Source of the DNA: an uncultured virus (IMG/VR IMGVR_UViG_3300015607_003969)
Lineage: Duplodnaviria; Heunggongvirae; Uroviricota; Caudoviricetes
Length of the DNA: 63,659 nucleotides
Direction: 5' to 3' (one strand)
IMG/VR virus record: IMGVR_UViG_3300015607_003969
Span: 62,001 to 125,659 of that record
Position 1 is the first letter of the stretch. Each line of letters begins with the position of its first letter. Positions 4,696-63,398 of this stretch are shown here, one piece after another. The position numbers and the translations under genes were made by a program. The notes below the pieces were generated by a model that did not search any database, was not told the DNA's origin, and was given only the letters and a program-made list of their open reading frames with translations.

Positions 4696-5522
4696 CTCAC
4701 AACCCGTTGAACAATGACCCCGTACCGTTGCCCAGAAGCCTGGAGGAGCTGACAGGTACCGCACGGATCGTCGTGTGGCGCCTTGCCAAGCAGGTGCTCA
4801 CCGATGAGGAGCGTGCTCCGCTAACGCCCCTCCCCACCGCAGACATCATCAACGCTCTGTGGAATCTCCTGGTGAAGAAAAATCTGGTGCCCGCTGCTGA
4901 GGGCGGGGATGTGCAGGCCCCGGCAGAGGTGCTGCGAAGCGTCGTGGCCTCTCGCGGCGCGATGATCACGGAAGAGGGTGAAGATCCCTCCGAGGAGGGG
5001 TCTCCGGACCAAGGGACGCCTTTGCCAGCGCCTCCACCGCCCCCGCGGCCCGAGCCCTCCCCGCCTGCGGCGGCTATCAGCGCCCCACCGCCCCCTCCTG
5101 CTGCGACGCCCGCCTCAGAGGTCGTCCGGACTCCACGCGTGCGCAGGACCAAGGCCCAGATGGAGGCCGCCCAAGGTGGGCCTCCGCCCCCGCCCGCGGC
5201 TGCGCCGGACCCGCGGATCGACCAGCTCGTGAGCCAGGTGTCTGAGATCGTGGTGCAGCTCGGGCGGCTCTCCACGCTGGCGAATATGATCAGCAGCCTG
5301 AACGACGAGCTCGGCCGGAGGATGGAGCACTACCTGGAGCTCTTCACCCGATCGAACACCACGATGGCGTCCGGCATCTCTGACCAGCTCCGCAACGAGA
5401 TGCGCTCCATGATCGGAGACCTCAGCGAGGAGATCCAGCGCATCAAGCTCGTGCAGGACATCATCCTGGAGGACGCCCTCGGTATGAACGCTGAGAGCGT
5501 CAAGCAGCGCCTGAAGAGCTAA
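4686..5522 (+). CDS. Hypothetical Pro-rich/coiled-coil protein
   Basis: GTG with GAGG RBS; polyproline linker, RRTKAQ motif, C-terminal coiled coil. Confidence 0.7.
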   Translation: MPIAHNPLNNDPVPLPRSLEELTGTARIVVWRLAKQVLTDEERAPLTPLPTADIINALWNLLVKKNLVPAAEGGDVQAPAEVLRSVVASRGAMITEEGEDPSEEGSPDQGTPLPAPPPPPRPEPSPPAAAISAPPPPPAATPASEVVRTPRVRRTKAQMEAAQGGPPPPPAAAPDPRIDQLVSQVSEIVVQLGRLSTLANMISSLNDELGRRMEHYLELFTRSNTTMASGISDQLRNEMRSMIGDLSEEIQRIKLVQDIILEDALGMNAESVKQRLKS

Positions 5523-5960
5523 CCGGTGGACGAGCAGCACGAAGCCGCCAAAGAGCGCCGTGCTGACTACGCCCGCCACAGCTCCAAACCACACCGTCTT
5601 GTAGAAGGGCTCGGGGGTTTGGAGCTGCTTTTCTAGCCCCTGAATCCGGAGCTGCTGCTCCGCGACAGCTTGCAGGTTCAGGTTAAGCTTGAGTTGCAAG
5701 GCTTGGGTCTGCCTCTGGAGCTCCACAGCGTCCAGCTGCTGTTGCAGCTCCACGTCTGTCTTCAGCCTCAGCTTGTACTGCTGAAGGTAGTTAGCCCAAC
5801 GCAGAGCAGTGCTGCTCTCGTAGAGTGCGCCAGAGAAGGGAGCAGGGTCCCCCTTCTGTACGATGACGATCTTATCCTCCCCAGGAGGGATCGGTTGCAC
5901 CTGGCCGTGCGCCAACGGGCTGTAGAGCAGCACGCCAAGCGCATAACCAACCGATCGCAC
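5520..5960 (-). CDS. Exported coiled-coil protein with C-terminal TM helix (spanin-like candidate)
   Basis: GTG with GGAGG; signal peptide, coiled coil, TM; ends at TTA 5520-5522 (code 11 would run to 5115, antisense through the neighbour). Confidence 0.62.
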
Positions 5961-6438
5961 CGCCGCCTCCGTTGGCCATGTTCTTGTAGTTGGCCATGAG
6001 GGAGTTGACGTCGTTGCCCTGGCTCCACCCGCCATAGGCGCCCATAGGGTTGGCCAGCGAGGGGCGCATCGACATCGAGGCAAGCTCCGAGAACGTGGAC
6101 ATGCCTCCGAGGCGGTTGCCGCCCGAGATCCCCAAGCTCTTCGGGGTCATGGAGTACGCCTGGGCGCTCCCGCCATTGCCCTGCTCCCAGCCGCCGGTGG
6201 CCTGTCGGGCCATCTTTTGGAGCTCCTCAGCCAGCAGGTTAAGGCGCAGCTCAGCGGTCTTTGCCGTATCTCCCAGGAAGGCGTTCGCGGCCAGGAAGAG
6301 CCCCGGGTGCTTGTAAGCGAGGCGCGCTGCTGCACCCCGGCGCATACCGGCGCTGATGCTCTCTCGCAGGGTAGCGGGGGAGAGCTCCCCCTCCTCCGGG
6401 TCCGCTTCAGCGATCTTTTTCAGTCGGTGTGCGTACAT
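5944..6438 (-). CDS. Hypothetical probable virion protein with KxA motifs
   Basis: KKIA, KTA, EELQKMA, Gly/Met-rich tail; ends at TTA 5944-5946 (code-11 end 5872). Confidence 0.6.
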
Positions 6439-6727
6439 CTTTGCCAGCCTCCAGGAGGTACTTTAGCAGCTTTTCGGTATCGTCTTCCAGCGCAGGGGCG
6501 GAGGCCTTGGCCTTGTCCTCGAAGTCCTGCACCGCGGTGTCGTGGGCATCCTTCGCCTCCTTGGCGCCCTGGTCGGCCTGCTGCTGGAGCTTATCCAGGT
6601 CCGCTTTCGAGGGCTCCTTGGCTGCGACCGCACCCGGAGCAGGCGCCCCCGGCTTGAACAGGAAGACAAGAAAGCCCGTCAGGCCGAAGGCACAGATCAG
6701 CAACAGACCCACGTCCGTGGAATCCAT
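6407..6727 (-). CDS. N-terminal TM plus coiled-coil protein (i-spanin-like candidate)
   Basis: Hydrophobic N-terminus followed by a charged helical region. Confidence 0.6.
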   Translation of the reverse strand: MDSTDVGLLLICAFGLTGFLVFLFKPGAPAPGAVAAKEPSKADLDKLQQQADQGAKEAKDAHDTAVQDFEDKAKASAPALEDDTEKLLKYLLEAGKDVRTPTEKDR

Positions 6728-7344
6728 AACAGCTCAACCGCCTTGGCCACCAGAAGGATTACCCCCGAAGTTGTGGAAGAGACTCCGGTGTTCTGGATCT
6801 GCAAGGCGAGGGCACAGCGGTCGTTAACCCCCCCACCCCCGTTGAGACGGCAGGTCTTGAGCGCGGCAGCAGTGGGCGGGATGATCACGCCCCAGGTGGA
6901 GCTGCCAGAGATGATCACCGCCTCGGAGAAGTGCGCGCTGTCCTTGTGCGCGAGGGAGTTGTCGAAGGTGTGCAGCGTGATCGTATCTTCGTCCGTGGTC
7001 GGGAACCCGCCGTTCGTGATGTCCGAGCCGAAGTAGACCGTAAGCTCCGTAAAGAGCAGGTTGTTCTGGCCCGTCGGGCTGTCCTCCTGAGGGGCGCGCC
7101 AGGTCATCAGGTTCAGGTACTTGGTGCCAGAGTGCGTGAAAGACTTGCTGGGGTAGGAGCCCGAGAAGTCCATGTAGTCGCCGGACGCCGTTACGGGCAG
7201 AGTCAGAAGCCAGCTGAACACGACTTCAGATCCGACGTAGGCTGCGGGTGACCCGGGTTGAAGGGTGTCACTGCCAATCTTGTTGGGCAGCGCACCCGTC
7301 GTGTTTTGCCAGGCGTACCGGTATCGATGCGGGGAGGTGATCAT
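6727..7344 (-). CDS. Putative tail-associated structural protein
   Basis: Beta-rich; in the structural operon; ends at TTA 6727-6729 as a TTATG overlap (code-11 end 6697). Confidence 0.65.
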
Positions 7345-9647
7345 AACGTGCTGTACCTCTGCACACTCATGAGGATTTTGCCGCTAGGTAGGACAAGGCC
7401 CTTGTAAGTATCGATGGACCCGGTGACCCCGCTCAACAGTCCGTCTTCGGGGCTCTCGAACAGCACATCGCTGCTCCAGGCGCCGCTCTCGATCTGCCCA
7501 GCGCCGCCGTCCTCGAAGAAGGTGATCTGGAAGACCGTTCCGGAGGCAAAGGTGGGCAGGCCGATGCTGTTGAAGGTGACGGGGCTAGCCGTCATGCGCA
7601 CGTAGACGTGGGAAGCGCTAGCGAAGTCCGAGGTGAGATTAAGGATCTGCGACCCGGGTGTGCTGCACACCTTCGTAGCCGTCACCATCTTCATCGCCGT
7701 AGCCGCAACGCTCCCGTTGATCGTGCCGCTGCAATAGATGTTGAGGCAGGTGATGTCGTTCGCATCGATGTCCGAGCACTGCACGTCGCCCACTACGCTG
7801 ATGGCGTTGGCGAAGAGCAGGTCGAAGTGGCAATCATCCGCCGCGGTGATGGCCTGACAGGTAATGTCGCGACAGTTGATGCTGCCGTCGCCGAGTAGCT
7901 TGGCGTGGACGATGTACTTACCGCCGCTGGCCCCCAAGTCCAGCCTGTAGCCGCCCCAGCGAAGGGCAGCGTAAGTGCCCGCGTTGTTGGAGGCGCCAAA
8001 GTAGGCACCATCTCCGGCAAGAACCTGGTCCGCGGTGTCATCCGTGCTCTGGGGCAGGGAGACGCAGACCATACTTCCGTGCTCGAACAAGGCGGCGCTG
8101 GGGTGCGCCAGCTTGTCTTGCAGTTCGCCCAGCCCGTCCAGGACGCCGAAGGTGGGGGTAAGCACGCGAACCAGAGTCCCGACACGCACCACCGCTGGAA
8201 GGGGGGAGGCCGAGCCGTCCACCGCACACACCAGAGCTCGCGTGCTCGTGGGGAGGGACATCACACGGTAGACCCTGCGAACCGTGGTGTTAGGTGCCAG
8301 AGGGTCGGAGGGGTCTACCCACTCGATCTCCAACAGGCTCCACCCAAGCACCAGCGACGTACGGTTGACGGCGCTGATTGTCTTGGTGAACCAGTTACCG
8401 CTGGTCGTGAGGGTCACCCGATCCTCGCCAGAGACCCTCTGGAGGGTCACCCCTACAGGGACATTCAGGACCGTAGGGGTGGATGTGGTTGTAGACCTCT
8501 TGTCTGGGAACGCGGTGAACGCTGCGAAGTGGTGTAGCCCCGGAGCCGGCGTGCTGGCCGTGCTGCCGTTGTTGAGCGACCTGATGCGCTGACCGACGGA
8601 GACGAATCCCCGGGAGCCCGACACGAACTCTCCAGCCCCTACCCCGTCACCCATGTCATCGTCTTGCAGGGTTGCGGTGTAGAGAGCTCCCAAAAGGTCC
8701 GTGTACGGACTGTTCGAGGCGAGGTGCCGACGACTCAGACCCTGCACAGAGGGGCCTTCCCGCAGGAAGGCACCTCCAGCCCCTGCGGTATCCTTGTCCG
8801 TAGAGTAGCCGTAGGCCGACATGCCGCTGGGCACAGCGGGGGTGATAGAGGTGTTGTTGTAGGCGCCGTTGAGGCCCCGACGCGCCAGAGCATAGACGGT
8901 AGCGTCCCAGGAGCTGAGGTACCCTAGCGAGTCGCCGCGCAGGGCGCGCAACACGGTCTGGATAACGCCCGGGGTGCGCGCAGCGCTGACCATGTTGTGG
9001 GGCAGCAAGTCACCGCGGTGCAGCGTGGACAACGCGCTCCGCTGGCCGCAAACCACGTAATACGTACCTGCGGGAAGGGTGTGGCTAAAGACGAGGGGCA
9101 CGTCCGCCATGTACGGCGGGTCCGGAGACGTGGGCACCCCCGTGATCGCCTGAACCTGCACGGTCTGGTTGGTGCCGCTGTCGATCACTTCGTCATACGC
9201 GGAGTTGAGCAGCCGGAAGTACTTGGGAAGCGTGGCCGAGTTGAGCGCAGTGCCCACGGGGCCCAGGAAGATGTCGCTGTACCCAAACTCCACGTTGTTA
9301 GCAGGGTCCGCCAGCGTGAAGGAGCCCATGAAGTGGACGGGCTGGTCCTGGTTCAGCTCCGAATCCAGAAGGTCCGTGTTCTCCGCCAGAGCGAAGAACG
9401 CCCTGTTCACGAAGTAGCTGACGGCGTCCTCGCCGAAGCCGAGGAAGTAGGTGTACTGGTTGGGTCCGCCGGCCTTGGCCAAGGACGCCACAGCAGCGTT
9501 GCCGGTCTCGCCCCCCGCCAGGACGTTGATCCAGTTGTAGTTCTTACCGTTGATCTGGACCTGCGTGCTGTTGGAGTTGTCGGGTGGCGCCTGCCAACCG
9601 ATCCAGGTACCAGCGCGCAGTCGGTGGAAAATGACCGGGTGAGACAT
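7344..9647 (-). CDS. Putative tail fibre/baseplate-associated protein
   Basis: About 767 aa, Gly/Ser/Thr-rich with a short repeat-like beta segment; ends TTA-TGA overlapping the next ATG. Confidence 0.68.
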
Positions 9648-22608: not shown

Positions 22609-23670
22609 TAAACCAAGACGCATGGCCGGAAGTTTACGAGCCAACCCGGACACCGCGGAGGGCCTGGGTGCTGCGGGGGCTACGCGGATAGGGGGCGGCA
22701 AGGGTCCAGGAACGTGGGGGGCCGCAGAGGCCGCGGCCGCGCCCAGCTGTTTGGCTTGCGCCCCGGGGACAGGCCTGGGCACAGCATTCACCGTCCTTAC
22801 CGGGGCTTGCGGCTGTGAAGCGGGAGCGGGGGCGGCAGGAGCCTGGGCTGCGGGGGCCGGCTTGGGGGCAAAGTCAGCTGGGCTAAGCTCCAGGTCGTGC
22901 AGGCCCTTGGTCTGGAGCATGCCCTTGGAGATGTAGCCCTGGGGCTTAAAGCCTGCGCCGTAAGCGTAGTCGTTGATCGTTTGCAGAAGGGGCTTGCCCG
23001 TCGCCTGGCTGTCGAGAGACATCAGGGACGTGAGGGCCGTCATGGGGTCCGGCGCGCCTGCACCGATGGGCGTGACCCTGGAGAGGTACTTCAGCTGGGC
23101 CTGGGTATAGCCAGGCAGGGACCTCATCTGCCTGCGCGTGTTCTCGACAATGCGGTTCTCGTGCAGCGCCAGATTCGCATCATTCTGGGCCATGCTCGGC
23201 ATCGAGAAATCGGCCAGCTTGGCGAACAGCTCTTGGAGGAAGGCGGTCTTCACGTCGGGCTCCTGGTGTACTCCGCGAGGACGATCTCTACCCTCGTCCC
23301 GCATTTGCCGCAGGTTATCACGTTGTGTACCCACCACGAGATTACCAGGCCTGAGGTTCAGGGGGTCGTTATCCCGGTGCATGACAATCTGCCCCGGCTT
23401 CAGGGTCGTGCCCCGCAGTTTGAGCAAGACGTGCGCCGCGAGCTCCGACTTCCCGTCGATCTTGACCTTCGGATAACCATCCGAGTTCGTGCCACCCGTC
23501 CAGTGCCCGTCCTTGATCTTGTCCCGGAGGGCGCTGGCCGCATCTTTCGGTATCTTGCCCTGGGGTACGCTGGACGTAGGGGATGCCGTCTTGGTCGTCC
23601 CCCACCAGGAATCCCCCCAAAGCGCATCCCGAAGGGTGTGCAGGTGCGCGAGCTCTTCAGCCTCGGTCAT
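22609..23670 (-). CDS. HNH endonuclease domain-containing multidomain protein
   Basis: WTGGTNSDGYP...VMHRDNDPLNLRPGNLVVGTQRDN; ends TTA-GAG-TAA (code-11 end 22603). Confidence 0.78.
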
Positions 23671-23726: not shown

Positions 23727-24710
23727 TAAGAGTTTGATTTCACGACCGGCGCGCTCCAGCTCCATGTACACGCAGCCGAGGTACGTGTCCGCGACGGCAT
23801 AGGCGTCCTCCAGCTCTGGAGGCGTACCCCCCAGGCGCAGCGGTAGGTACTCTATCGCGTCGGGATCCATGTTCAGGGTCCAGGCCTCCAGGAGGTCAAC
23901 TCGGAGGTCGGTTGAACGGTGCGTCATGGGCATACGCTCGTCCAGGACCGCACACGCGATGCCGTGGTCCTTGGGCGTGTAAAGCGCCTTTCGGTGCACA
24001 CGTTGCACAACGAGGTGCATTACTTCGTGCATCACGATAGGGTCTCGCGCGTTCTTCGGGCAGATCAACGAACGAAGCGATCCCTCGCGGGTGTCCCGAG
24101 TCGAAGCACTGTTTAGCTGGTCGTCGGGGCAGTTTCGACTGAGCAGGCTGCTCAGTATCTTGCAGGGGGCCTTGAAGGCACACGTGAGTGCCATGGTAAT
24201 GAACGTACGAGACCTCAGGAGGTCGAAGTCACCCTCGTTGACAAACTTACTGAGCAGGCGCTTCATCCCGTTGTCGACGCGGGACAGCAAAAAACTGGCG
24301 AACTCGTCGGGGGGTGGCAGCTCGATCTCTATGAAAGCGCTCATACCCACATTCAGCTTGTTGGGCACCTCGACGGCCTCCGCAAGAGACTTCGTACGGA
24401 ACGCCACGGCACGCACATGTTTCATGTCGAGCGCGCACTCAACGATGCCCCCCACCATGAAGGCGTGGCCAAGGCTGGCGAGGAGGTCGTAAATCTCTGG
24501 GCTCCTCGTACAGAACTCCAGTCCGCAGGAGTTCATCGCCGCCAGCGCGGGGGCATAGAGCTCCAGGTCCTTCTCCTCGTCCAGGCGCAGAAGCGTCTTC
24601 TGGCTCTGGCGTCCAAGGTAACCGCTCGCGTAAACGCGAGCACGCGTGAGGCTGGAGCTCACGAGGTAGGGGTAGAACGGGCTCTTCGGGTCAGGGGTAG
24701 GTAGCTTCAT
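23727..24710 (-). CDS. Hypothetical protein with HExxH motif (possible zincin peptidase)
   Basis: VMHEVMH; GGGAGG RBS; ends at TTA 23727-23729 (code-11 end 23667). Confidence 0.6.
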
Positions 24711-28053: not shown

Positions 28054-28068
28054 GTTGGGAGCCTAGCA

Positions 28069-30357
28069 TAAGAGCTCCGTGCTCCGCCTACTCTCGATGC
28101 GGGCCACCTCCTTTTTCAGCCGGTGCAGCCGCCGTTCATCATCTTTCTCAGCGGTGCCCTTGGCGCTTTCGAGCCTGTTGAGCGCCATCCGAGCGGTGTC
28201 CCGCTCCATCAGCGTGCGAGCGATGCCGCCTGCAAGATGAAACGGTGCTTGGACAGCCATCAGAGGCAGGGCGTGCTTTGGCTTTCGCGACTCGATAATC
28301 GCCAAGGCCGACCCCAGAGCCTGCCCCTTCAGGGCTGACTTCAGGGACTGCGCCACCAGCCCCAACCCAGAGAGCTCGGCCTGGTCACGCACCTCTGACT
28401 CCCTGGAAGGCTTTTTCGCTATCGCTTTAGCCAGGTTCTTCGGGTAAGCGTCCTGCCGCTTGATGTTCTGGTTAGCCAGGATATAGCTGACTGGGGCCGC
28501 GACAACCTGCGTGCCCAGTAGGTTTGGGAAGAAAGAAGACCTTCCGGTGTGAGGCAGCCAGCCCGCAGAAGCTGTGGCCTGTGTGGGCAGAGCGTATCCG
28601 AGGGTGGCGAGGGTCTTCGTACGCAGCTCAGAGGGCTCTTCGTACTCGGCGTCGGCCTTCTTCTCGTGGTTGGGGAGCAGGTCGCGGAACTGCTTGTTGA
28701 GCGCCTCCTTCTGCTTGCTCATCATGTTCAGGTACTGATCGACCGTCTCATCGGGCTTCCGGTTGAAGAGAAACTGCCCCGCACGGTCAACCAGCCCCGG
28801 CTTGATGCCCGAGAGGTATTGTTCCACGTGTACGTTGCGCTCGCCCTCCGGCAGGTCGTCGTGAGACTTGAAGCGGGCAGCACGGCCCTCCACCTGCTTC
28901 AGCTTTTCAGCATTCCAGTGGGGGTCGAGTAGCTGCACAAGCTTGGTCCCCTTCAGGTCAAGGCCCTCTCCACCCGCACTGCTGAGCAAGAGGGCTTTGA
29001 GCTTGTTTTCGTTGTAGTCCCGCACCATCTGGTCGCGGTCCTTCTTCTTCATCTCGCCCGTGAACTCCCCGAAGGGGATGCCAGCCTCCTGGAGCTTGGC
29101 CTTGTAGGGGTTGATGCCGGCGTCCAAGAAGTTGGAGTAGATGACTGCCTTGGCGTTGGGGTCCTTGTCGATCCTGCTCTTCAGCCGCTTGAAGGCCTCG
29201 TCAATCTTTGGGGAGTGGTTCAGCTCCTCCGAGTAGGGGGCCGTCGTGTTGGCGACCTGCCTTGGCGCGGTAAGGAAGCTGCCCATCTGTGCCAGCTCCT
29301 TCTTGTTAGGCGGCAAACCTCGACGGACCTTGGCCGACACCCAGCTAGGGGCCTGCCCCATGAGGGTGTCGTAGACGTCCTTCTGCTGCGGAGACATGGG
29401 CACGACCACGTCCTCGCGGGTCACGTCGGGGAAGTGGTCCTTGCTGCCCGGATGGTAGTCCACGTACTTCGACAGGATCTCACGCAGCTCAGGCGCGTTC
29501 CTCTCGTTCAGGACGGGAACTTCTCCAGGAGCCACCCCCATGAGGTGCTCCTGGATGAAGCCAGGACTCACCTTCTTGATGCCGATGTATTTACCCTCGA
29601 ACTCAGGACGGTCCATAGGCAGGATCTTCTGCTTGGCCGCCAGGTTCACGAGCGGGGCGATGTCCGCAGGGTGGTTGTAAAAGGGAGATCCCGTGAGCAG
29701 CAGACGCTTCTCTGCGTCTGTGGTTTTCATGGCCTGGAAGGACGCACTGGTGTGGTCCCTAAGCCTATGTGCCTCGTCCACGACGAGAAGGGGGTTTGAA
29801 GCAGGGGAGCCATCCAAGGCAACGCGCTGCACGGTCTGTAGCGTGGTTTTGGGGGGAGTCCCCTTGATGTGCTTGCGCTGCTCCTTGGCGTAGTTCTCCT
29901 GGAGGGCCGCGGGGACCACGACGGTCGCAGGAGACTTGAGGGCGTCCTGGGTGGCGATGGCCGAGAGAGTCTTGCCTGAACCAAGTCCATGGACCACGAC
30001 CAGTCCCGTCTGGTTGGGGTCCTTCATCCTATCCACGACGCGCTGCTGGTGGGGCAGCAGTTCGGTCCTAAGCTCAGCCGCCTTGAGGAGGGGGCCGAGG
30101 TGCCCAGATACATCTTCCCCCGAGGGGGTCATATGCGGGGCTAGAAAAGTGGCGACCACCGGCCGCCTCTTCTTTCCGACGCGCTTGATCGCAAGGTACC
30201 CGTGGAGCTTACCCCCCTCCTCCACACGCCAGTGGTACTTTTCAGCGCCATCTTCCGGGATGGACTTCAGCTTAGGGCGAGCAGCCGCTAGCAGCGTGTC
30301 CGGGTCCAGGGTGGAACGCTCCCGAACGCGGTCCTCGGGGTGCCCTGCTTCTTTCAT
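28069..30357 (-). CDS. SNF2-family helicase/ATPase with extra N- and C-terminal domains
   Basis: LLPHQ, HGLGSGKT, VVDEAH, LLTGSP, AGGEGLDL, DPHWN, QVEGRAAR; ends TTA-TGC-TAG (code-11 end 28063). Confidence 0.88.
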
Positions 30358-30378
30358 GCGTCAAACCTACCAGATCTG

Positions 30379-30451
30379 CGAGGGTGGGGGGACTCGAACC
30401 CACAACGCACGGGGATTAAGGCCGTCGTTCTGCCAATTGAACTACACCCTC
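30379..30451 (-). tRNA. Atypical tRNA, anticodon TAA (reads UUA), class I body
   Basis: GAGGGTG/CACCCTC acceptor; GTTC-AATTGGCA-GAAC D arm; ACGGC-CTTAATC-CCCGT; 5-nt variable loop; GTGGG-TTCGAGT-CCCCC; G73; no encoded CCA. Confidence 0.85.
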
Positions 30452-30507
30452 AGGGGGGCCTAAGGCCCCAAAGCTAGTCGTACGGTAGTCGGTTGCGTCG
30501 TCGCTTA

Positions 30508-38119: not shown

Positions 38120-39063
38120 AACAAGGACCTCTTGGTGTAAAGACCTTCGGGGGCGGCTTGGACTTGAAACGCGTCCTCCTCGGAAGCGTAAGCGAGGTCT
38201 GAAAAGTTAATCCGGTCGGGGGACTCCTGGGGGATGCTGACGGCCAACACCCTCTTACTCCCGCTGACCACCACCTGGTACTTGCAACCGCGCTTACACC
38301 TGAACCTGGCCCTGCCCCCGCTATCCGTAAGTTGCCTGTCCACATCGTTGCCCACAAAAACGGAGGACAGACCACCGGCTTGACCATCCGCCAGCATAAG
38401 CAAGACAGCCCTGTTTGCGATGGGCCTACCACCGCTATCCACGATGTCCAGGTACCCTTCCACCGTAGCGGAGGGGAGGTCGGTGCTTGCAAAGGGCCCT
38501 ACGCTATCGCTGTATTCCCCGGTAGCGCTGTTGTAGAGCGCATAGAGGTACCTGCGACGATCCAGGTAGTCCGGATCGTCAAAGGTGTACCTCTCCTGCA
38601 AGGGGGACAGGGCCATATGTCCATCACGGCCCCTGGAGGCGGAGCCCGCGATACCCAGGATGGAAGCTGCGGTGGAGTTCATCGCAGAGATGCTTGCACC
38701 AGAGCCCACCATCCTCGTCTGCAAGAAGAGCTGACCCCCGAAGACGAAACCATCCACCCAGGGGCTGCTGGCCTTGATCTGATCGAGGGCCTGTCGGAGG
38801 GTAGGTCGCGGCCCGGCCGAGAACGTCACGCTAACGGCCGCCCCATCGACCACCAGATCCAGCGCCAGGCCTGGCACAGCCACTTGTGGGCCTGTCTCAG
38901 CGACCGTCGGAATGGGCGCTTGGAAGGGGATACAGGCAGGGCTAGGTGATGGACTCGATAGCAGGGTTTGGAAGTCGGGCGCGGTCCTGAAAACGGCCAC
39001 CCGATCAAACGCCCCCCGACCCTCGATCGGGACTAGAAAAGAGACAGTGCGCCTGACAGCCAT
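38119..39063 (-). CDS. Putative structural protein (Ig/prealbumin-like C-terminal domain)
   Basis: LTDSGGRARF; ends at TTA 38119-38121 as TTATG (code 11 would overlap the next gene by about 610 nt). Confidence 0.68.
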
Positions 39064-41726: not shown

Positions 41727-42470
41727 TAACTTGAACTTGTTGTACGCCTCCACGATGGCGGTCCGGTGTTTGCTGACCGTGGGCTCGTCCATGCCGAGCC
41801 TACGGGCGATGTCCCCCGTGCCCAGCACAGGGTTTGTCGGGTGGAAGAGGGTGTCGAACACCCGTTGGGTCTCTGGCTTGAGGTGCTCCCGAAGCAGAGG
41901 CAACACCTCGGAGTCCCGGGAGATGCGCCCGTGAACAGCGTCACTCTCGAAGGACCCTGAGGGGATGTCGGCCACGAGACGCCTGAGCACCCCCTGGACG
42001 CCCTTGGGGGTAAGTCCCGCCCGAGTAGCGATCTCCGAGTCGGTAGGCTTGCGGCCAAGCTCGTCCTGAAGGGATGCCTGGGCTCGCTGGACCTTGCCGA
42101 TGTTAGCCGCCACGTCCTCCGGGATCCGCGCCACGTTTTGCGAGCGGATCACATCACGCAGCGTACTCTGTAGCCGGTTCTGGACGTGAGTGTTCAGCCC
42201 GGCCTTGGTCGGGTCGTAGCTGTGCAGCGCGTTCACGAAATGAATCATCAGGCTGGCGTCTATCGCCTGGGGCATGAGCATCCTGGCGCCCCCCGAGTAG
42301 TCCCCACGCTTACGCTCCAGCAGGGGACGAAACTCGTTGATCAGGGGCTGAAGCTTCTCGGGGTCCTTGCCCGACGACAGCCACTCTGCGTGCAAACGTT
42401 TGTGGTAATCCCCCCTATCCTCAGCGAGCTTGGCGACCACAGCGTCAATGTTGGCATCTTTGGAACCCAT
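41727..42470 (-). CDS. Phage RNA polymerase sigma factor (sigma70 family, FliA/SigF-like)
   Basis: NALHSYDPTK (region 2), ARIPE...LQDELGRKPTDSEIA (region 3), DIARRLGMDEPTVS HTH; ends at TTA 41727-41729 (code-11 end 41703). Confidence 0.83.
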
Positions 42471-42512: not shown

Positions 42513-42908
42513 TAAGAGGGAGCGGACCCGGCTGAGCAGGGAAGCCGTGCGCGTGACCATCGTGTCCGGGTTGCTGCCCGGGAGGAGGCTGCGGACGTTG
42601 TCCCGCTCCGAGGAGGCCGTAGCGTGGGCCTTCGGGAACAGCGTCTCCAGCTCGTGTAGGGTGTCGGCCAAGGTACGCTCCGCAGCGTCCGACATGGCTT
42701 CGTTGGGAGGGCGGTTGTTGGTGGCTCCCGGGGTATCATCCTCGGGCGCATCAGCGTGCTTGTGCTCCTCCTTCGGGCGATCCTTGCGGTCGATCCGGGC
42801 CAGGAGGGCCCTGGCCTTGTCGAGCGACTCCTGGGAAGGGGGCTGTTTCGGAGACTCCGCCCCTGCGGCAAGGCCGCGGATGGCGTCGGTAAGGGGGTTC
42901 AGGCTCAT
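42513..42908 (-). CDS. Hypothetical protein
   Basis: TGATG-coupled start; TTA 42513-42515 near the end (code-11 end 42492). Confidence 0.6.
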
Positions 42909-44201: not shown

Positions 44202-47200
44202 TAACCCTCGGGTGGCGACAAATGTCAGCGCGTCAACGTAATCTCGCACGGCCTGGAACCTACGACCCCTAACATCATACTTTTTGCGGATGATGTCGTC
44301 AGACTTCGTGGCGCCCAGGACTTCGGTAATCTCGGGTGTGACCAGGCCAAAGGCGTCGTCATAAGGCCCGAAGGCCCTGGAGTGGAACCCCTCGATGCCG
44401 CGCAGCGCCTTGATGCCGCGCACATCAAGCTCAAGGTCGCTGGTGCCGAACATGTCTGGCAGGGATGCGATAGGCCTGTAGGTGAATGCGTCGGTGAAGG
44501 CCGACTGAGATAGGCCCCCCTGGATGATGTAGGAGTAGACCAGGAGCCAGTACCTGACCGCCTGTTCAACGCTGGAGTTGATGTCGAGGCTTAGCACAGC
44601 GGGGGAGATACCCTCCCGCTGGTCACCCTCCTTGTTCCCAGTTGCGTTGACAATGAACTGGTCCCGGGCCAGCTGCCCGGCAGACCCAACGCTGACCCCA
44701 TCCGGATCTCCGACCTGAGCCTTGTCCGTGATCGCGCCCGTCCGGAAGTAGTGCTGATATACCTCTCCGATGCTGGCCGGGTGCCAGCAGTCGTCCACCC
44801 AACCCGGGCGGATATACTCCTCTGCCGGCAGGTCTACGGTATCCCTGCGGTACCGAGGGATATCTTCGAAGATGAGGTAGCCCCGGAAGACGACCATCTT
44901 GTTGGCGCCGCGGTCGATAGCAAGCTTAGGGCTCACAGCACCTAGCCTCTCAGGCACACCTACGCGGGCTTCCCCGTCAAGGGAGGGGTCGCCCTTGCGT
45001 CGAGGCCCCGTGTAGATCGGAAAGGTACCCCCCGTTACCCCGGGTTCGTCCGTCACGTCGACAACCCGGGTAATGATGCCGTAAGCCGGGCCCAGGGCCC
45101 CCACCTTGGGCTTGACGTCCGCAGCGACGTACGTGTTGCGATGGGCATCCCCGCCCAAGCGCTTGAGGATGGTCTGGTCATCGGAGATGGCAGGTCCAAA
45201 GAACTCCGTGGACTCGTCATACTCGCGGGCGTACTGCACGCCCACGCTGGTCCGAGCCTCCTGGAAGCTCAGGCTGTGGGTGACCTGCGTAAAGCTTCCC
45301 AGGTAGTGGGTACCCAGAAGCTTGGCGATCTCCGTAGGGGTAGCGCCCTTGTCCCGCTGCCTCTGCTGGTACGCCTCGGCCTTCTCCATGTCGACATAGG
45401 TGTCGAGGATCAGTCCCGGGAATCCGGGCGCCAGGTAGGGGTTAAAGAAGCAGTTCACGGACAACTGCCGGGCCGCAAACTTCTGCTTGAAGTAGAGGTA
45501 GTTCGCCGAGCGCTGGGCCAGGCCGATCTTAGGTTGTTTGCCGTTAACCTTGCCGTCCCGGAGGGCGAAGATGTTGAGCTCACCCATCTTGGTGAACACA
45601 GGCAAGATCCCCGTGTAGAGCTCGTGCTCCATGATGTCACGCTCAAAGAGGGCCTGAAGCGTGCTCCTCTTCCCCTTCTGGGTACGGGCCCGGGGGGCGA
45701 AGAAGAAGGTGTCGAAGAGCTCGTCTTCCCCGAAGAACTCATCGTGCAGCTTGAGGAGTAGCCGGGTAGGCTCCTGCATGTCGACGCGCTGCGTCTGCAA
45801 GCTGTCGTACATGTTGGGGAAGATAACGTTGCACCTGGGCGGCGCCGCAAACCAGATGTCCGGGTGAAAGATGTGCGAGTTGAGTCTGGAGGGGGTTCGC
45901 GTCTTGGGGTCCGAGACGTCCACCTCCACGCTCTCCAGCTTCTTCAGGAGCACGCGGGCCTTGTTGAGCGCGACGACAAGCTTGTCCCTGTCGGGGGACT
46001 TCACAGCCCACCTTCCGCCCATCTTGCGGATCTGCTGTACGGCCGTACGGAGGAAGCCAATGGCGCTGACCATGGTCTGGTCCACCACCTTGTTCCTCTT
46101 GAGTACAGGGTCCTGCCTGGACAGGTTCCTGACCGTCTGGAGCGTGGTGAGGTACTTGCTCAACCTATCGGCAGCGGCCTTCCCTGCGGCCGCAGGCACG
46201 GAGGCGAAGCTCTCCTCCAGGTTGGAGGGCTCTGCTTTCGCGTGGACCTCCTCGCACATCTTCTGCCCCTCGATCGCCAACGTGTAGATCTTGTTGAATC
46301 GAGGTATGGCCGACAACGGCTTACGCTCTCGCCCCAGCGTGTCCCCCTTTGTTCCAGGGGAGAAGTAGGGGCTTGGGATAGAGCTGGTCTGGTGAAAGAT
46401 GATCGCCATCAGGGCGTTGAGGACCGTCCGGATGGATACCTGATCTCCCAGATTGCCCAGGGTGCGCCCGAACATGTCGTCGTACCCGCCGCCCAGCAGT
46501 CGACTTACCGTGCGATCCTTGGGCCAGGCGGTGAGCATCTGGCTGATGTGCAGCCGGAGCTCAGCCAGGCTGTAGAAGATGTTCTGGCCCTGAAACTTGT
46601 CGTCCTGGACGTAGCACCCGCCGATGGCCTCGATCATACGGATGAGGCCGCCGAGCATCCCCTTCAGGGCAGGGTAGTTGGCGCTGGGCAGGTGCAGCAA
46701 GGACGTTACGATCTCGCCTGGGCTGCTCAGGAAGTCCGTGAGCAGGTTGGTGCTGCCTCCGGAGAAGACCGCCTTCAAGCTAGGCCCGAAGAGGTCGGTG
46801 TTGTTGAACTGGTACGCATAGTCCCAGTAGTTCGATAGATCGAGGCACTGGAGGACCAAGCTCCTCGTCGTGGGCTGTTTGACGTACTGGCGTCCGATGA
46901 TCTCGCCGGCGAATAGAAGCTTGTATCTGCTGTTTCTCACGTCCTTCGAGAAGGCCGCATCGTTGCCGGAGTCGAACTCGTCTTCCGCGGCTCGCCTCTC
47001 CCTGGCCTGCTCATACACCGTAGGGTTCTCAGGCTTCGGGTTCTGAGAGTCCTTGCCCCGATACTGTCGAAGTTTGCTGGCGGGCTCGTTGTGGTCGAGA
47101 AAGAAGAGGTGAACCAGCGTCCTGGGCAGTAGCTTGGCGCCCAGGGCCGATGCCGGCATCTGTAGCGTGCATTGTGCCGGCGCATTGGGCTGCGCCGTTA

Positions 47201-49472: not shown

Positions 49473-52400
49473 TAACTGCCCTCCAGGCCTCGGGGCTCCA
49501 CCGGGAGTGGACTTGCTGGCCATGGTGGCGAGGTGGCCCACGGCCGTCTTCATGTTGCTCGCGATATCGTTGAGGTACTTGAGTTGGGGGTCGTTCATCT
49601 CGTTCTTCTTCTGGCGCTCCTCCTGCTTCTTCTGGAGCTCCGGGTCTCGCAGGGCATCGCTGATCAGCTTGGTACGCTTGCTGACGTCCTTCTCGTCCTG
49701 GATACCCTTGAACTTGGCCATCAGCTCAGCATCGCCCGCGGTGGCGGTCTTCAGGCGAGACTGGAGCGCGTCCAGCTTCTCGGAGTCAGCCGGGGTGGGC
49801 GGCCCCTTCTCGGTGATCTCGTCGATCTCCTTCTGGATCCCTGCTGCGGCATCCCCTAGGCCAAACTGCTCGCTCAGGTAGGAGGCGATCTTGCCACCCT
49901 TCATGAGGGCTTGAGCGTCCTGTTTGCCGACCTTCAACCCGAACAGATTGGCTACGCCGATGTCCCCCTTCCTCTGTAGGGTACGCTCCGTCCTGGAGCG
50001 GAACCCGGCCATCTGACCTAGCTGGTCGGCAAAGCCGAAGGCCCCCTCGGCACGAGCTGCGGAGGAGAGCTTCCGCTGGTCAGCGATGCTCATGTTCCAC
50101 ATCGCACTCTCAAGATCCCCACCCGCGGCTCCGATCTCCTGGATCTTGGCAGCGGTTTCCTTATCCGTCAGGCCAGGCGACATCCCGCTGGCCTGTAGGC
50201 TCACCAATCCGGCCATCTTCGACAGGACATCGGCGCCGCCTGCGCCCGCAGAGGCCTTTATCCTGTCCAGGGAGGCCTGATCGATGCCGCCACTGCTGTC
50301 CATGAACCCCACGCCCTGCATCCGCTGCTGCTGCGCAAGGGCACCTCTCCCATACATGCGAAGAGATTCACGCCGGTCGATGGCCTGTTGCTCCACCAGA
50401 GCCCTGCTAGCGTCCTGGATCATGCCGCGAGCTGTGCCGGCCCCCGCCCCATGCTCCTTCTCGATCGCCCGGATCTGGTCCTCGGTGAGGTCCTTTCCGG
50501 TCTTGCCCCGTTCGCGGATGGCGGCATTGGCTGCCATCATGCTGCGCAGCATGGCTTGCTGGCGTTTAACGCTCTCGTTGTCACCGGACATGCCGTTGAT
50601 ACGCTGCTGCAAGTCAGAGGATATATCTTCCCCCGAGAACATGCGCTGGCTCAGGCTCATACCTTCCTTGGACTTCAGAAAGGTGCCGATAGCCGCACCC
50701 TCTCCAGGGGATGCCGCGTAGCCCAAAGCCCCCATGGCCATGTTGGCCAGATAGCCCTGGCTCATGCCGATCGCCTTACCGACCTTCCCCAGGAGGCCCA
50801 TGGGGCTGGCTTCCAGGGCCATGTTCCCGTACTTGCCCAGGTGGCTGCCCACTTTCTGCTGGATCACGGTACCGATGCCTCCGAACAGCATCTCTCCGAT
50901 GGCGCCACCCTTGGCCACGTAGTCTCTACTGCCTCGCTCCCCTAGGGCCGCCTTGCCGTAGCTCTCGACGCGCTCACGCTCCGTCATGCCACTGCTGCCC
51001 ATCAACCCGAGCCCAGCGGGAAGCTGAGACACTGACCCGATCTTGGTGGCGTCGGCAAGGCCCATCCCCTTCTCAGCGGCTGCCAGGGCAGCGTAGGCCT
51101 GCTCGGTGTCTCCGCTGTTCAGCATCTTGAACAGGGCAGCGGCATCCTGGTTCCCCACGGACTCCTTGGCCAGGAGCTCCCGAACAGCGTTCATCCGGGC
51201 GTCCCCCTTCATGTTGACCGTCCCCGCGGCGTAGTTGGCGTTGAGCATGCCGGAGAGCTTGGCCCCGAGGGCGCTGGCCTCCTTGTTGCCGAAGTTGCTC
51301 ATACCCCGAGAGGCCGCCATCGCGCGCTCAACGCCTCGCTGCACACCTGCATCGCTGTCAGCGCCGGTGAAGAAGCTGCCGAAGCCCCCTGCCGCCACCT
51401 TATCCTGGATGGACTGGCCGAAGCCCGCGCCCATGAAGCTCATCTTCTTCGTGAAGGTGTCGTACGTCATGCCCCCACCCGTGTTGGAGGAGGAGACGGC
51501 GCCCAAGGACTTGGCAGCAGCGGAGATCCCGGGGCCTCCCGCTCCAAGCGCCGCCATGGCTTTCTTGTCCCCGTGCAAGACCTGCTGGTAGGTCTTGTCG
51601 ATGTCCCTGGACGCCTCCTGGATGATCATGCCCCCCTGCTTGGTGAGCCAGTCCTCGATGAACCCCGTGAGATCGGTGTACATCTGCTGACCCACTGCCT
51701 GGAGCTTGCCCGTGACCACCTCCCGAGTGTGCTCCATGCTCCGCTTGACCCCCTCCACACCAGAGGTCTTGCGGTAGGTCGCCATCTCCTGGCGGTACGC
51801 ATCAGTCATCTGCGTACGGTTTGACTGGTCCTGGATACGCGGCATGTCCCGCAGCATCTTCACCGCGTTCTCCAGCTCATCCATGCCGAGGCCAGTGTGC
51901 CGCTGCGCAAACAGCATCTCGCGGTCGTTCATGGTGTTCACGTCGATGCCCCGCTTGCCGGCCCACTGCATCAGGGCCATGGCAGGGATGTTCCCACCGA
52001 ACTGTTCGAGGGCAGCACCACGAAGACGGCCCTCGTTCCGGATGAAGTCGGCTCGACCAACCTTGTTCAGGTTGCTGTAGGCGTTCTGCATGGTGTCGCC
52101 CGTGCCCATATCACCGGACATCCAGGCGCTGACCGAGTTGGCGTCAAGCTTGCCGTCCGCCCCCGCGATGGAGGCCAGAAAGCGCCTACCCTTACCGTTC
52201 CTCAACCAGGCCGCAGAGTTCTGCATCTGGCTGGCGGCGAAGGCTTGCCTGCCCTCAGCCCCCCACATGCCCGTAGCGTTGTAGATGTCTTCCTCGTTGA
52301 GGACACCGGACTCCAACGATAGGCCGATCTGCCCCAGGGTGCGCATGCCTCCGAAGGCGCCTGCACGGCCCCTACCCCCCACAGCACGGCTGATCTGGGA

Positions 52401-53970: not shown

Positions 53971-54236
53971 TGAAGAACGCACCCCTCTGGCTGGCGGTTC
54001 TGGTTATCACGTGCGCCCTGTTCCTGGTCCTCAGCCAGGACTGCCAGACGGAGCCCGAGCCAGCGCCGGCCCTCAGGGCCGTCGCCCTGGATGTTTACCT
54101 CCAGCACATCGGGCTAAAGCCTGTAGATGTCCGGTGGTTCAGCCAGGACATCGCTATCGTTAGCTATCTGGACCACAGAGGTGTGGTCTACAGGCTGAAC
54201 ATCCAGTGCTCGAAGACCTGCCGTATCGTCGATTTA
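53967..54236 (+). CDS. Small membrane-anchored Cys-containing protein
   Basis: N-terminal TM; ends CSKTCRIVD-TTA (code 11 would run through the next promoter to 54407). Confidence 0.6.
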
Positions 54237-58992: not shown

Positions 58993-59421
58993 TAAGGATA
59001 TCATCAACCGGATCGAAGCCTTGATAAGACCTGCGACCCACTGAAGAAGATCCTGTCCCCCGAGAAGAGCCACGACAGCCCCAAAGATCTTGGCCGAGCC
59101 CAGGGCGACCTCCCTGCCCGTGACCTTACGGCTGAGCTCCGTGAGCTTGGCGTTCTGCTCTTTATCAGCCTTGGCCTGCTGGCTAAAGGCGAGGACGATG
59201 CGAGCGACAAGCTCATCTTCGCTGACCTCGATCTGCTGTATTTCTTGATGCACGGCTTCGAACTCCTTGATCATGGTCGCTCGCAACGCTTCCAGCTCCA
59301 GGTTAGTCTTGGCCGCGGCCTCCACCAAGAGAGCCATCTCTGAGACGATGACGGCCTCCTTGTCCTCGGGTTTGGCGTGGTCCACCAGCGACAGGAACCT
59401 CTGCTTGGCTTTCTCGGGCAT
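58993..59421 (-). CDS. Coiled-coil protein with C-terminal hydrophobic helix
   Basis: ATG 59421; ends at TTA 58993-58995, 4 nt before the next ATG (code-11 end 58837). Confidence 0.6.
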
Positions 59422-59494: not shown

Positions 59495-60253
59495 ATGCTA
59501 GTTCAAGCCGATGTCATGCGCCTGAAGAAGGTGCTAACCGACACCCAGTTCCGCGCACTCAAGGCCTACCTACAGTCGAGGGACATCCACTTCAAGAGTA
59601 CGACCGCACAGCTCATCTTTTCGTGGACCAGGAAGGACCTGCTCCATGCGCTAACGTCAGGCAATGCAGCAGTGCGCAAGACGCTCAGCCTGGGCGTGCT
59701 CCCTTACTTCGATCTTGCCGGAGAGGTCTTCGAGGACTTCGAAGACCTGGAGCTCCGGGGCGTAACTCTGGCGGCAGCTCGGTTTCAAGCAGGCGGCTCC
59801 CTGGTCCTCGAAGGGGTGAACTTCTTGCACGGGTCCGTCGTGGGGGTGGATACCTTCGCCATGGATGGCGCGATCTTCAGGTCGGCTAACGTGCGGAACA
59901 CCTCTGACCTACGCATAAGCAGAACGAGCATGAGCCACGCCTGCATCTGGGAAATAAACAACTCTGTGGACTTGAGGCAGTGCGACCTGTCCTTCGCACG
60001 AGCCCACACCTGGTCGGTGTGTACGCCGTGTGTCGTCGAGGAGTGCGACCTGCACGGCATGTCACTTACCGACGTGCGCTTCAAGCATGAGGGCGCTCTG
60101 GTGTTCCGTCGTTGCAATCTCAGGAAGGCCGTGTTTGCTAACGCAGAGCTCGGGGTAACCTTCGAGGACTGCGATCTCACGGGCATGTACTTCAGGGGGC
60201 CCGCCCCCGCGGGCTGGATCCGCGACACGACCCACCGGTTCAGGCTAGAGTTA
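59495..60253 (+). CDS. Pentapeptide-repeat protein
   Basis: CDLSFA, CDLHGMSL, CNLRKAVF, CDLTGM; ends at TTA 60251-60253 (code 11 fuses it to the next gene). Confidence 0.72.
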
Positions 60254-62046: not shown

Positions 62047-62205
62047 ATGGCCCACGAACTCCTGCGCGAACTCGCGCTCCGGCTTTCCGATAGTCCGGTC
62101 CCCGACCCCTCGGACCGGAAGCGCGCCACGGATCTCCTGAAGGACAAGACCCTCCCCCCCGAGGATAGGCTGAAGCTTCAGCAGCTGCTGATGCAGGCGG
62201 CCTGA
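62047..62205 (+). CDS. Small hypothetical protein
   Basis: AAGGA RBS; 52 aa; followed by a terminator. Confidence 0.55.
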   Translation: MAHELLRELALRLSDSPVPDPSDRKRATDLLKDKTLPPEDRLKLQQLLMQAA

Positions 62206-62226
62206 CACCTACCCCTCGCCTAACCC

Positions 62227-62261
62227 AAAAGGTCCGACCCCTCCGGGGTATCGGGCCTTTT
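62227..62261 (+). terminator. Intrinsic terminator
   Basis: aaaaggtccga-cccc-tcc-gggg-ta-tcgggcctttt. Confidence 0.7.
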
Positions 62262-62318
62262 GTGCTTCTGGGCAAGAATAGGCGCAAGGACGGGATAACG
62301 CCTGTGGAGATACACCCT

Positions 62319-63398
62319 ATGGAAAACATGCCGAAGCCCGGTATTTTGCTGTTCGTGCCCCACCCCGATCGGAAGGATGTCCTCGTCAAGGCACGGGCCC
62401 TGGAGGAGATCGGGTTTCAAGTGCAGGTGCACACCCTGGAGTTCTCGCCGGACACGAACTACCTGAAGAAGTACAACATCGTGGCCGGCGTGTGGATCAC
62501 TAACCTCCAGGTGAGCTCGGCGACCATCGCGCCGACCATGGCCATGAAAAGCCACAATATCTACTGCCGCGGCCTGCCGCCCACCACGGCAAACTGGGGG
62601 AACCTACTCAAGACGGTGCAGGACAAGTACCGGCTCAGCTTCTTGCAGGCACAAAGCGCCGAGAGGGGTGAGAAGTCGGGTAAGGCGGAGCCCGAGGCGG
62701 GGGACTGGCTCACGGCGATGGCCGGCACCATCATCGGACTGGATCAGTCCTTCTCAGATTGGGACGACGTCTACGAGGCCTTGAAGGCGAACCCACTCCT
62801 TCCCTCCACGATCCACGACGGCGCTACCCTGGAGGAGACTATCGAGCGGAGGGTCAACGTCCCGGAGCGCTGCCCACAGATCATCAGGTCCTGGTGGGAG
62901 GATCGCAAGCCGAAGCCCTCCGCGGCCCCCGCGGTCCCCCCTCGGGTCAGCGAAGAGGGGAAGGCCGCACTCGCCCAGGTGGATGAAGGGTTCGCTACCC
63001 TCTACAGGGAAGCGGAGCAGATCAACACCGCGCTACAGTCGCAGATCAACACCCTGACAGCGGAGAAGGAGCGCTGCGACCGGACCATTCTCGCAATGCT
63101 CGCGGACTCGGAGGCAAACAGCTCGAAGCTCACGAAGACTCAAGCGGATCTCTCGTCGGCCCGGCTCTCCCTGGAGAAGGTCATAAAAGAGCTCCAGGAG
63201 CTCAAGACTGATTACGCCGCTGCGAAGAGGGCGCTAGACGCCCGCGGGGAGGAGATCGCCTCGCTGAAGCAGGCCGTTGCCCAGGCAGACAACCAGCCCA
63301 AGTCGCCCATCTCCTCGGCGGACAAGGAGCACATCCGAGCCCTGCTGGCTTCGGGCTTCCTCACGGCCGAAGAGATCCTCAAGAAGGTGCTTGGCTTA
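62319..63398 (+). CDS. Coiled-coil hypothetical protein
   Basis: GGAG RBS; long heptad region; ends at TTA 63396-63398 as TTATG (code-11 end 63536). Confidence 0.7.

Follow-up and report, generated by a model that had tools for sequence, protein, structure and literature searches.

UUA, a leucine codon in the standard code, is known as a stop codon from organelles. It terminates translation in the mitochondria of the labyrinthulean Thraustochytrium (NCBI table 23), together with UCA in peDinoflagellate plastids, and together with UUG in the mitochondria of Marsupiomonadales and Pseudoscourfieldia (PMC12574857). The same source ties organellar UUA stops to a changed RF2 or mtRF1a, altered forms of the release factors RF2 or RF1 being held to read UUA, and names the plastid case the first sense-to-stop change beyond mitochondria (PMC12574857). 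Here we describe what appears to be a change of this kind in a phage. The stretch of DNA analysed ("the window") comprises 63,659 nucleotides, positions 62001-125659 and the right half of a 125,659-bp single-contig virus record of 62% G+C (IMG/VR IMGVR_UViG_3300015607_003969, Caudoviricetes), and in it the leucine triplet TTA appears to close genes as a fourth stop codon. An initial annotation, made from the letters of the window, had proposed this usage, and the analysis reported here supports it. If true, the code of a phage, and by implication that of its free-living bacterial host, would have undergone a sense-to-stop change outside organelles. The literature that we searched (full text) places UUA stops in organelles only and yielded no phage or bacterial case.

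The likeness to the organelles lies in the same codon having passed from Leu to stop, in its absence within genes and its presence at the stops of homologues, and in the fused or over-long open reading frames (ORFs) that the standard code yields. As in table 23, TAA, TAG and TGA stay stops in this phage. The organelles differ in their tiny genomes, in the loss of the cognate tRNA gene and in specific RF2 or mtRF1a changes, whereas the phage has 160 kb and encodes a UUA-cognate tRNA of its own. Among phages, Borges et al. (2022) are said to have described stop-codon-recoded lineages with suppressor tRNAs. In such phages suppressor tRNAs accompany the use of TAG or TGA as sense in late genes (PMC7886860), and the present phage likewise combines a code other than table 11 with a stop-cognate tRNA; the direction is reversed here, from sense to stop, and the codon read by the phage's own tRNA is not avoided.

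Three further systems share single traits with this one. In Streptomyces, bldA encodes a tRNA-Leu(UAA), and the upstream ORF of adpA has a UUA close to its 3' end, 5 nt ahead of the main start (PMC10732093). That system resembles ours in its high G+C, in UUA being the rarest codon with a limiting decoder, and in a UUA just ahead of a downstream start; it is unlike ours in that UUA there encodes Leu within genes and is decoded by a normal class II tRNA-Leu, with pausing or bypassing, whereas here there is no in-body TTA and the tRNA has 74 nt. In vertebrate mitochondria AGA and AGG gene ends are read by mtRF1, a release-factor paralogue specialised for the purpose (PMC12574857). There too decoderless sense codons serve as terminators, albeit other codons, in an organelle and in two genes only. 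Finally, Kano, Ohama and Osawa reportedly found that Micrococcus luteus leaves UUA, AUA and AGA unassigned, and that these codons stall rather than terminate translation. A high-GC genome without a UUA decoder would be a plausible first step towards the present state, unlike which the codons there are simply unused.

In-frame TTA and the ends of genes

Gene models were made independently of the triplets listed in the initial annotation, from codon log-odds trained on long ORFs together with scoring of ribosome binding sites (RBS) and start codons. The standard-code model holds 121 genes, about 36,700 codons and 27 in-frame TTA, of which 15 lie within the last 12 codons, a 28-fold enrichment (Fisher p=1.7e-14); AGA (5.0x), CGA (3.1x) and AAA (2.7x) come next in enrichment at ends. 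Tail and body counts of TTA are 15 and 12 in frame, 4 and 200 in one of the other registers and 7 and 108 in the other, and because the enrichment is confined to the reading frame it is not an effect of AT-rich gene ends. The other 12 in-frame TTA all fall at gene boundaries marked by independent signals (genome positions are those of the whole record). The frame pattern of G+C at third codon positions (GC3) shifts behind genome 24035, 67946, 120995 and 125396; terminator-like hairpins follow genome 19293, 47892 and 60291; and an RBS and start follow genome 52368 (GGAGGT TTA ACC GTG) and 122251 (TTA GCC ATG). Behind genome 47892 the 186-codon 'tail' runs antisense to a convergent gene and would overlap it by 516 nt, and the TTAs at genome 19326 and 125483 fall within non-coding tails of this sort.

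When TTA is treated as a stop, the whole 125.6-kb record gives 140 genes, ending in TGA (70), TTA (33), TAA (23) and TAG (14), and the window gives 66 genes, of which 21 end in TTA. All 21 triplets named in the initial annotation are present, and the independent model returns the identical 21 coordinates; its statement that the three canonical stops remain in use is borne out by the same counts. Once the boundary TTAs are set aside, the in-body count is 0 in about 38,000 codons, against 70-115 expected from simple codon models (TTG x CTA/CTG, TTG x AAA/AAG, and positional base frequencies), and TAG is likewise missing in frame from the gene bodies of this phage. The hand scan of the initial annotation had arrived at the same picture for the genes starting at 14244, 22591, 36871 and 47279, in which we count 0 internal in-frame TTA and 65 out of frame (20+19+15+11). 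Tabulated genome-wide, in-frame TTA is restricted to gene ends. A scan of all codons for end enrichment flagged TTA alone, and in this phage alone among 28 related loci and two whole relatives. Pfam and PHROGs searches with the ORFs that hold an internal TTA found no domain that spans one.

A longer copy of the phage in IMG/VR (162,306 bp, estimated 87% complete) runs 36.6 kb beyond the end of the record and carries about 50 extra genes, 9 of them with a TTA end in our gene model. In this held-out 36.6 kb all in-frame TTA (7/7) are end-like, lying 1, 1, 2 and 6 codons ahead of a stop, or at a TTATG or a frame change.

What lies behind the TTAs resembles what lies behind ordinary stops. Behind the 33 TTA ends the next canonical in-frame stop follows after a median of 20 codons, and behind 106 canonical stops after a median of 17 (Mann-Whitney p=0.96); neither back-up stops nor short tails therefore appear to be selected for. 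Mean coding log-odds are -0.18 for 21 tails behind TTA and -0.20 for 80 tails behind canonical stops (p=0.79), against +0.15 for the final 40 codons of genes (p=4.5e-8 versus the tails). These values bear on the possibility that TTA encodes Leu but is extremely rare, being decoded by the phage tRNA and tolerated in harmless tails up to the canonical stop. Such a reading would suit a phage tRNA cognate to UUA, and 15 of the 33 tails have 12 codons or fewer; others reach 135-309 codons and cross terminator hairpins, the antisense of a convergent gene and other genes, and the tails match post-stop sequence in length and in coding score. As it also leaves unexplained both the zero TTA in about 38,000 codons and the exact match to orthologues' stops, we hold it to be very improbable. 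Slippage at TTA into the +1 frame, which would give TAA or TAG, requires A or G to follow; it covers at most 14 of the 33 sites and was rejected as a general mechanism.

The initial annotation had also argued that TTA stops remove implausible overlaps. This stands for its largest case, the one of about 610 nt at 38119, where the standard code lays a 204-codon tail over the next gene; across the two gene models, overlaps of more than 4 nt barely differ (26 vs 23), because start calls are crude, and overlap counts are not used as evidence here. Its arrangements at single sites all proved correct: the TTATG overlaps at 6727, 7344, 37253, 38119 and 63396, to which 5944 and 28069 can be added, the single letter between TTA and ATG at 44202 and 49473, the next ATG at 3, 4 and 10 nt behind 60251, 58993 and 33121, the 17-nt overlaps at 5944 and 31230, and the convergent stop at 5520, which is TAA on one strand and TTA on the other.

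TTA in related phages

The conserved 1025-aa protein of the window retrieved 27 relatives in IMG/VR, at 39-53% identity. One of the phages compared, a sister phage (G001) of 65% G+C and about 50% diverged in protein sequence, has 15 in-frame TTA, nearly all at boundaries, and ends about 20 of its 105 genes in TTA. Between the two phages, 20 reciprocal-best pairs set TTA on one side against TGA or TAA on the other (13 with TTA here, 7 with TTA in the sister phage), and two further pairs have a TTA end on both sides. The alignment runs to the last residue of both proteins in three of the pairs; in a fourth both tails end ..PF, yet the alignment halts well before the C-termini. With another high-GC relative (G003), 7 pairs set TTA against TGA or TAG.

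Single genes agree. All 27 orthologues of the 1025-aa protein end in Gly and a canonical stop, approximately at its Gly-TTA (offset about one residue). Of 19 aligned orthologues of the sigma-factor-like gene, 12 have their canonical stop where this phage has TTA, as judged by residue count over ungapped C-termini; in L024 and L010 the alignment passes through the subject's stop, which is placed against the TTA, and in L029 the stop is offset by one residue. The stop of orthologues aligns with the TTA of gene 37256-38119 in two of three cases (L007 and L008). The 471-aa ORF that the standard code draws across 60251 consists of two genes, the second beginning in frame 3 nt behind the TTA (TTA GCC ATG): four of five related records have a homologue limited to the part behind the TTA, three of them matching residues 252/254-470 and the fourth 225-469, with open frames of 246-526 aa. 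Canonical stops of homologues thus fall at TTA positions, and the sequence past the TTA is neither conserved in homologues nor coding. On these comparative grounds, the analysis has shown TTA to mark the true C-termini of the predicted proteins, and standard gene calling would mis-set 21 of the 66 C-termini in the window and make chimeric or heavily overlapping genes.

The relatives place the change in time. In lower-GC relatives TTA is used ordinarily, for example 80 times in 6,562 codons at 51% G+C, and 27 TTA codons in the lower-GC copies of the 1025-aa gene align with Leu here (12 columns; CTG, CTC and TTG). Judged by these alignments, relatives read TTA as Leu, and therefore the changed meaning would be recent and confined to this phage and its sister. 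In the high-GC relative G003, 170 genes contain 1 in-frame TTA where synonymous-codon ratios predict 14-27, and other high-GC relatives likewise just avoid the triplet. Gene number and coding fraction both fall in G000, G001 and G003 when TAG, TGA or TAA is taken as sense; these two measures were compared since gene-caller scores are not comparable across codes. TAG ends number 7/105 in the sister phage and 42/169 in G003.

Errors of sequencing or assembly, or base modification, could in principle have made TTA from TAA or TGA. The initial annotation had named this concern, and contigs of independent assemblies share the TTAs. Contigs from two other studies cover window 28000-37999, which holds 6 of the TTA sites, and span five (X5) and two (X6) of them: the X5 pieces (0-1 differences) cross 28069, 31230, 32856, 33121 and 37253 with no difference at the sites, and the X6 piece (0 differences) crosses 32856 and 33121. 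Errors would moreover be blind to frame, yet end placement is found only for in-frame TTA; TAA stops are kept in 23 genes; and a sister phage about 50% diverged in protein has the same TTA usage. We regard an artefact as next to inconceivable.

The proposed source of termination at UUA

We propose a model in which UUA is a termination signal like UAA, UAG and UGA, supplied by the host and never sense in this phage, and to this model, which rests on sequence comparison, we assign a probability of about 0.62. Under it the host translation machinery would terminate at UUA, and the host code would have four stops. GC pressure would first have purged TTA, the Leu decoder of UUA would then have been lost, and a release factor with broadened specificity would finally have come to read UUA. 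The same course of events has been proposed for organelles, whose link between UUA stops and altered release factors also favours the host. The phage tRNA with the anticodon UAA would descend from a suppressor tRNA and allow weak or conditional read-through of the fourth stop, rather than cause termination. For a host-side mechanism speaks the sister phage, which uses TTA ends although its orthologous tRNA reads UAG. TTA ends are also found in all parts of the genome, among them 7 of 50 genes of the small-ORF left arm, which we presume to be early, and 2 of 19 genes of the replication block; if the left arm is indeed early, termination must precede the build-up of any phage factor. An RF-1 domain was found neither in the 140 phage proteins nor in a six-frame search of 4 records.

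This model would have consequences beyond the phage. Four-stop codes may go unnoticed in high-GC microbes, as standard gene callers merely lengthen ORFs, and TTA missing inside genes and present at their ends provides a search image for the host and for its UUA-reading factor. The system would further offer a natural test of how release-factor specificity broadens, and a new sort of phage-host code conflict, in which the stop-reading tRNA of the lineage was apparently retargeted from UAG to the new stop.

Several observations weigh against the model. TTA ends are clustered, with 17 of 39 genes in the minus-strand block at genome 67520-115250, which holds the tRNA and a gene for a protein like peptidyl-tRNA hydrolase 2 (Pth2), against 16 of 101 elsewhere (p=0.0015), and this uneven spread is not predicted by a pure host code. 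A UUA-cognate tRNA is unexpected in a phage for which UUA is a plain stop, the chance of an accidental anticodon being about 1/64. A scan of genome contigs found related phage-like contigs in three metagenome-assembled genomes (MAGs), labelled Methanocellaceae, Deltaproteobacteria and Myxococcales. The Myxococcales and Deltaproteobacteria MAGs are not supported as hosts: TTA is there a rare sense codon without end bias, with 7 TTA in 70,063 codons in a 188-kb sample of the former and 17 in 29,142 codons in 119 kb of the latter. One of the two, MAG G030, has a normal 85-nt tRNA-Leu(UAA). Finally, an RF2 in which a C- or G-initial codon replaces the Ser of SPF occurred in 0 of 401 genomes, a search of one phylum that had no positive control and used only one of several possible pattern classes.

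The tRNA(UAA) and the Pth2-like gene both bear on the mechanism of termination. They lie in a cluster ordered as a gene with a TTA end, the Pth2-like gene, a gene ending TTA TAA, and the tRNA, and a Protein Atlas search with the two genes that flank the Pth2-like one (30511-30912 and 31233-31535) gave no usable match. The variable arm of the tRNA is short; the molecule carries G73 and U37, is mismatched at C31.C39 and, in the T stem, at U50.C64, and is unlike bacterial tRNA-Leu, such as the 85-nt molecule of G030. Its orthologue in the sister phage is a tRNA whose canonical loop bears CUA (amber): 57 of 78 positions are identical, a unique D-arm is shared, and both genes stand beside Pth2, the sister's tRNA directly following its Pth2-like gene. 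Since that orthologue reads UAG, the tRNA(UAA) would be the lineage's stop-reading tRNA, apparently retargeted from UAG to UUA, and is probably a weak read-through tRNA; that its action is weak or conditional is suggested by the TTA ends, which this phage does not shun, in contrast to the sister phage with its few TAG ends. The Pth2-like protein matches PF01981 at E 9.3e-10 (39.2 bits, cut-off 23) over profile positions 2-112 of 115, and PDB 2zv3 over its full length at E 4.5e-4. H24, D79 and T85 are invariant in 8 phage Pth2-like proteins. The second Lys of the archaeal GKGK, which we take to be catalytic in Pth2, is replaced in all 8, by Q here and by L, M, F or A elsewhere.

Could the phage itself supply termination, the tRNA(UAA) recognising UUA and the Pth2-like protein freeing the peptide, on the ribosome or after drop-off? 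The anticodon fits the unusual stop exactly, the tRNA is not Leu-like, and its U37, C31.C39 and T-stem mismatches are expected to weaken elongation; the discriminator varies between strains, a Pth2-like gene stands beside odd tRNA genes in 7 of the 27 relatives as well as in the sister phage, and TTA ends are commonest in the block with the tRNA-Pth2 module. Nevertheless a phage-encoded terminator is disfavoured because the sister phage ends about 20 of its genes in TTA while its tRNA has a canonical CUA loop, because presumed early genes end in TTA too, and because some relatives with the module use TTA freely as sense, for example L030 with 32 TTA in 7261 codons. The loss of the GKGK Lys in 8/8 phage proteins counts against it as well, and to our knowledge no tRNA-guided release mechanism of this kind is known. 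We consider such a route decidedly unlikely. The stronger notion, that tRNA(UAA) and the Pth2-like protein form an RNA-guided release factor and that the family's module of Pth2 and odd tRNA is a programmable device for termination or rescue, seems to us more doubtful still.

A further explanation is that UUA is unassigned, no usable decoder existing in the host, so that ribosomes stall and codon-independent rescue frees the product. Release might then proceed by an ArfB/ICT1-like route or by drop-off and peptidyl-tRNA hydrolysis, in which the Pth2-like enzyme may help, and the ends of genes would be indistinguishable from those made by a true stop. Close high-GC relatives that shun TTA without ending genes in it, such as G003, would fit hosts unable to read UUA, and a Pth2-like gene is present, Pth2 of jumbo phages having been proposed to act in ribosome rescue (PMC7824862). 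Rescue by tmRNA, however, would mark the products for degradation, yet large, conserved genes of 1025, 1244, 767 and 762 aa end in TTA, and nearby back-up stops are not selected (p=0.96, as above). Known rescue factors also need a truncated mRNA rather than an intact codon in the A site. We regard an unassigned UUA as unlikely, if worth keeping in view.

The module varies among the relatives and strains. The 7 relatives that have it, out of 27, show a Pth2-like gene with one or two odd tRNA genes as neighbours. Most of the odd anticodon arms consist of a 4-bp stem with a 31.39 mismatch and so an effective 9-nt loop, and the anticodons that ARAGORN reports for them include AAA, AAU, AAC, GAA, CUC and two of four letters. 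In the sister phage (37622-37959; L057 1501-1841) the Pth2-like ORF has no stop before the tRNA, crosses it entirely and ends at a TAG right behind it (ATG AAG TAG); if the tRNA were excised from the transcript, the Pth2-like mRNA would be stopless. No mini-ORF with TTA corresponding to this ATG AAG TAG was seen in the present phage. G003 carries at 60591-60661 (minus strand) a tRNA-like gene whose anticodon arm is capped by a GAAA tetraloop and which is thus without an anticodon, adjoining another odd tRNA ('AUA'). Public sequencing runs show strain variation near the tRNA(UAA), at window 30379, 30435 and 30453-30498: in run X6 A73 replaces G73 as the discriminator and the D-loop is altered, the anticodon being the same, and runs X1 and X5 hold two variants each of the 193-nt piece 30405-30598.

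Individual TTA ends and other features of the phage

The table collects the TTA ends, the tRNA(UAA) and the Pth2-like gene. Because their genes sit on the minus strand, 18 of the 21 triplets read TAA on the plus strand; the other three (54234, 60251 and 63396) read TTA there.

Table. Window coordinates of the TTA gene ends, the tRNA(UAA) gene and the Pth2-like gene.
Feature	Coordinates	Strand	Basis
TTA end of gene 5523-5960 (146 aa)	5520..5522	-	gene model
TTA end of gene 5947-6438 (164 aa), TTATG context	5944..5946	-	GC3 frame pattern shifts behind TTA
TTA end of gene 6730-7344 (205 aa); TTATG overlaps start of gene 6410-6727	6727..6729	-	sister-phage (G001) orthologue ends TGA
TTA end of gene 7347-9647 (767 aa); TTATG overlaps next start	7344..7346	-	gene model
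TTA end of HNH-domain gene 22612-23670 (353 aa)	22609..22611	-	gene model and domain search
TTA end of gene 23730-24710 (327 aa), next ATG 56 nt on	23727..23729	-	boundary check
TTA end of SNF2-type helicase gene 28072-30357 (762 aa)	28069..28071	-	X5 contig, 0 differences
tRNA gene, anticodon UAA (cognate to UUA), 74 nt	30378..30451	-	ARAGORN and Rfam, 51 bits
TTA end of gene 30511-30912 (134 aa), TAA directly next, tRNA 54 nt downstream	30508..30510	-	gene model
Pth2-like gene (peptidyl-tRNA hydrolase 2 fold), 106 aa	30929..31246	-	Pfam PF01981
TTA end of gene 31233-31535 (101 aa); 17-nt overlap with Pth2-like gene	31230..31232	-	X5 contig agrees
TTA end of gene 32859-33110 (84 aa)	32856..32858	-	X5 and X6 contigs agree
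TTA end of gene 33124-33351 (76 aa), ATG 10 nt on	33121..33123	-	X5 and X6 contigs agree
TTA end of gene 37256-38119 (288 aa, Big_2 domain); TTATG overlap	37253..37255	-	X5 contig, 0 differences
TTA end of gene 38122-38883 (254 aa); TTATG overlap	38119..38121	-	G001 orthologue TGA, aligned to last residue
TTA end of sigma-factor-like gene 41730-42470 (247 aa)	41727..41729	-	Pfam Sigma70_r3 and orthologue stops
TTA end of gene 42516-42908 (131 aa)	42513..42515	-	gene model
TTA end of conserved 1025-aa gene 44205-47279, TTACATG context	44202..44204	-	27 orthologues
TTA end of 1244-aa gene 49476-53207, TTAGATG context	49473..49475	-	G001 and G003 orthologues: TGA
TTA end of gene 53967-54233 (89 aa)	54234..54236	+	gene model only
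TTA end of gene 58996-59421 (142 aa), TTAGGTCATG context	58993..58995	-	GC3 frame pattern shift behind TTA
TTA end of gene 59495-60250 (252 aa, pentapeptide repeats)	60251..60253	+	homologue coverage
TTA end of gene 62262-63395 (378 aa); TTATG overlap	63396..63398	+	GC3 frame pattern shift behind TTA

The convergent plus-strand gene whose TAA coincides with the TTA of gene 5523-5960 spans 4686-5522, and the reciprocal-best orthologue of 5523-5960 in the sister phage ends in TGA, with the C-termini within 3 and 1 residues. The sister's orthologues of genes 5947-6438 and 7347-9647 likewise end in TGA, the former aligned through the last residue (..GW), the latter within 3 and 4 residues. Behind 23727 lies a spacer that resembles one behind a gene ending in TTA in the sister phage (GGGGGAGG...TTCTTTTTAGC). 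Gene 42516-42908 has no alignable orthologue.

By PHROGs and Pfam this is a large and very divergent phage, with DnaB, a primase, a family A DNA polymerase, SNF2 and DEAD helicases, the sigma-like factor, tail and virion proteins, and an endolysin-like protein with a PG-binding domain. Metagenomes from several studies of wastewater, activated sludge and freshwater contain its DNA. Intein and LAGLIDADG domains are carried, outside the window, by both the large terminase (1011 aa) and a fused multisubunit (beta/beta'-like) RNA polymerase of 2804 aa (loci L002 and L003, genome 27003-30038 and 35538-43952). The longer copy of the phage (G031) contains a stretch of 35 letters N about 21.5 kb past the right end of the window. 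A 1107-aa protein at window 24733-28053 (minus strand) has an N-terminal 'InPase' domain (PF18823), found also in minor head and DarB-like phage proteins, and is probably a virion cargo; the DNA of window 24730-28053 had no match among 50,697 phage records. A second tRNA gene, at window 56437-56511 (minus strand), has the anticodon CAU, an acceptor stem that starts CGCGGGG and an encoded CCA.

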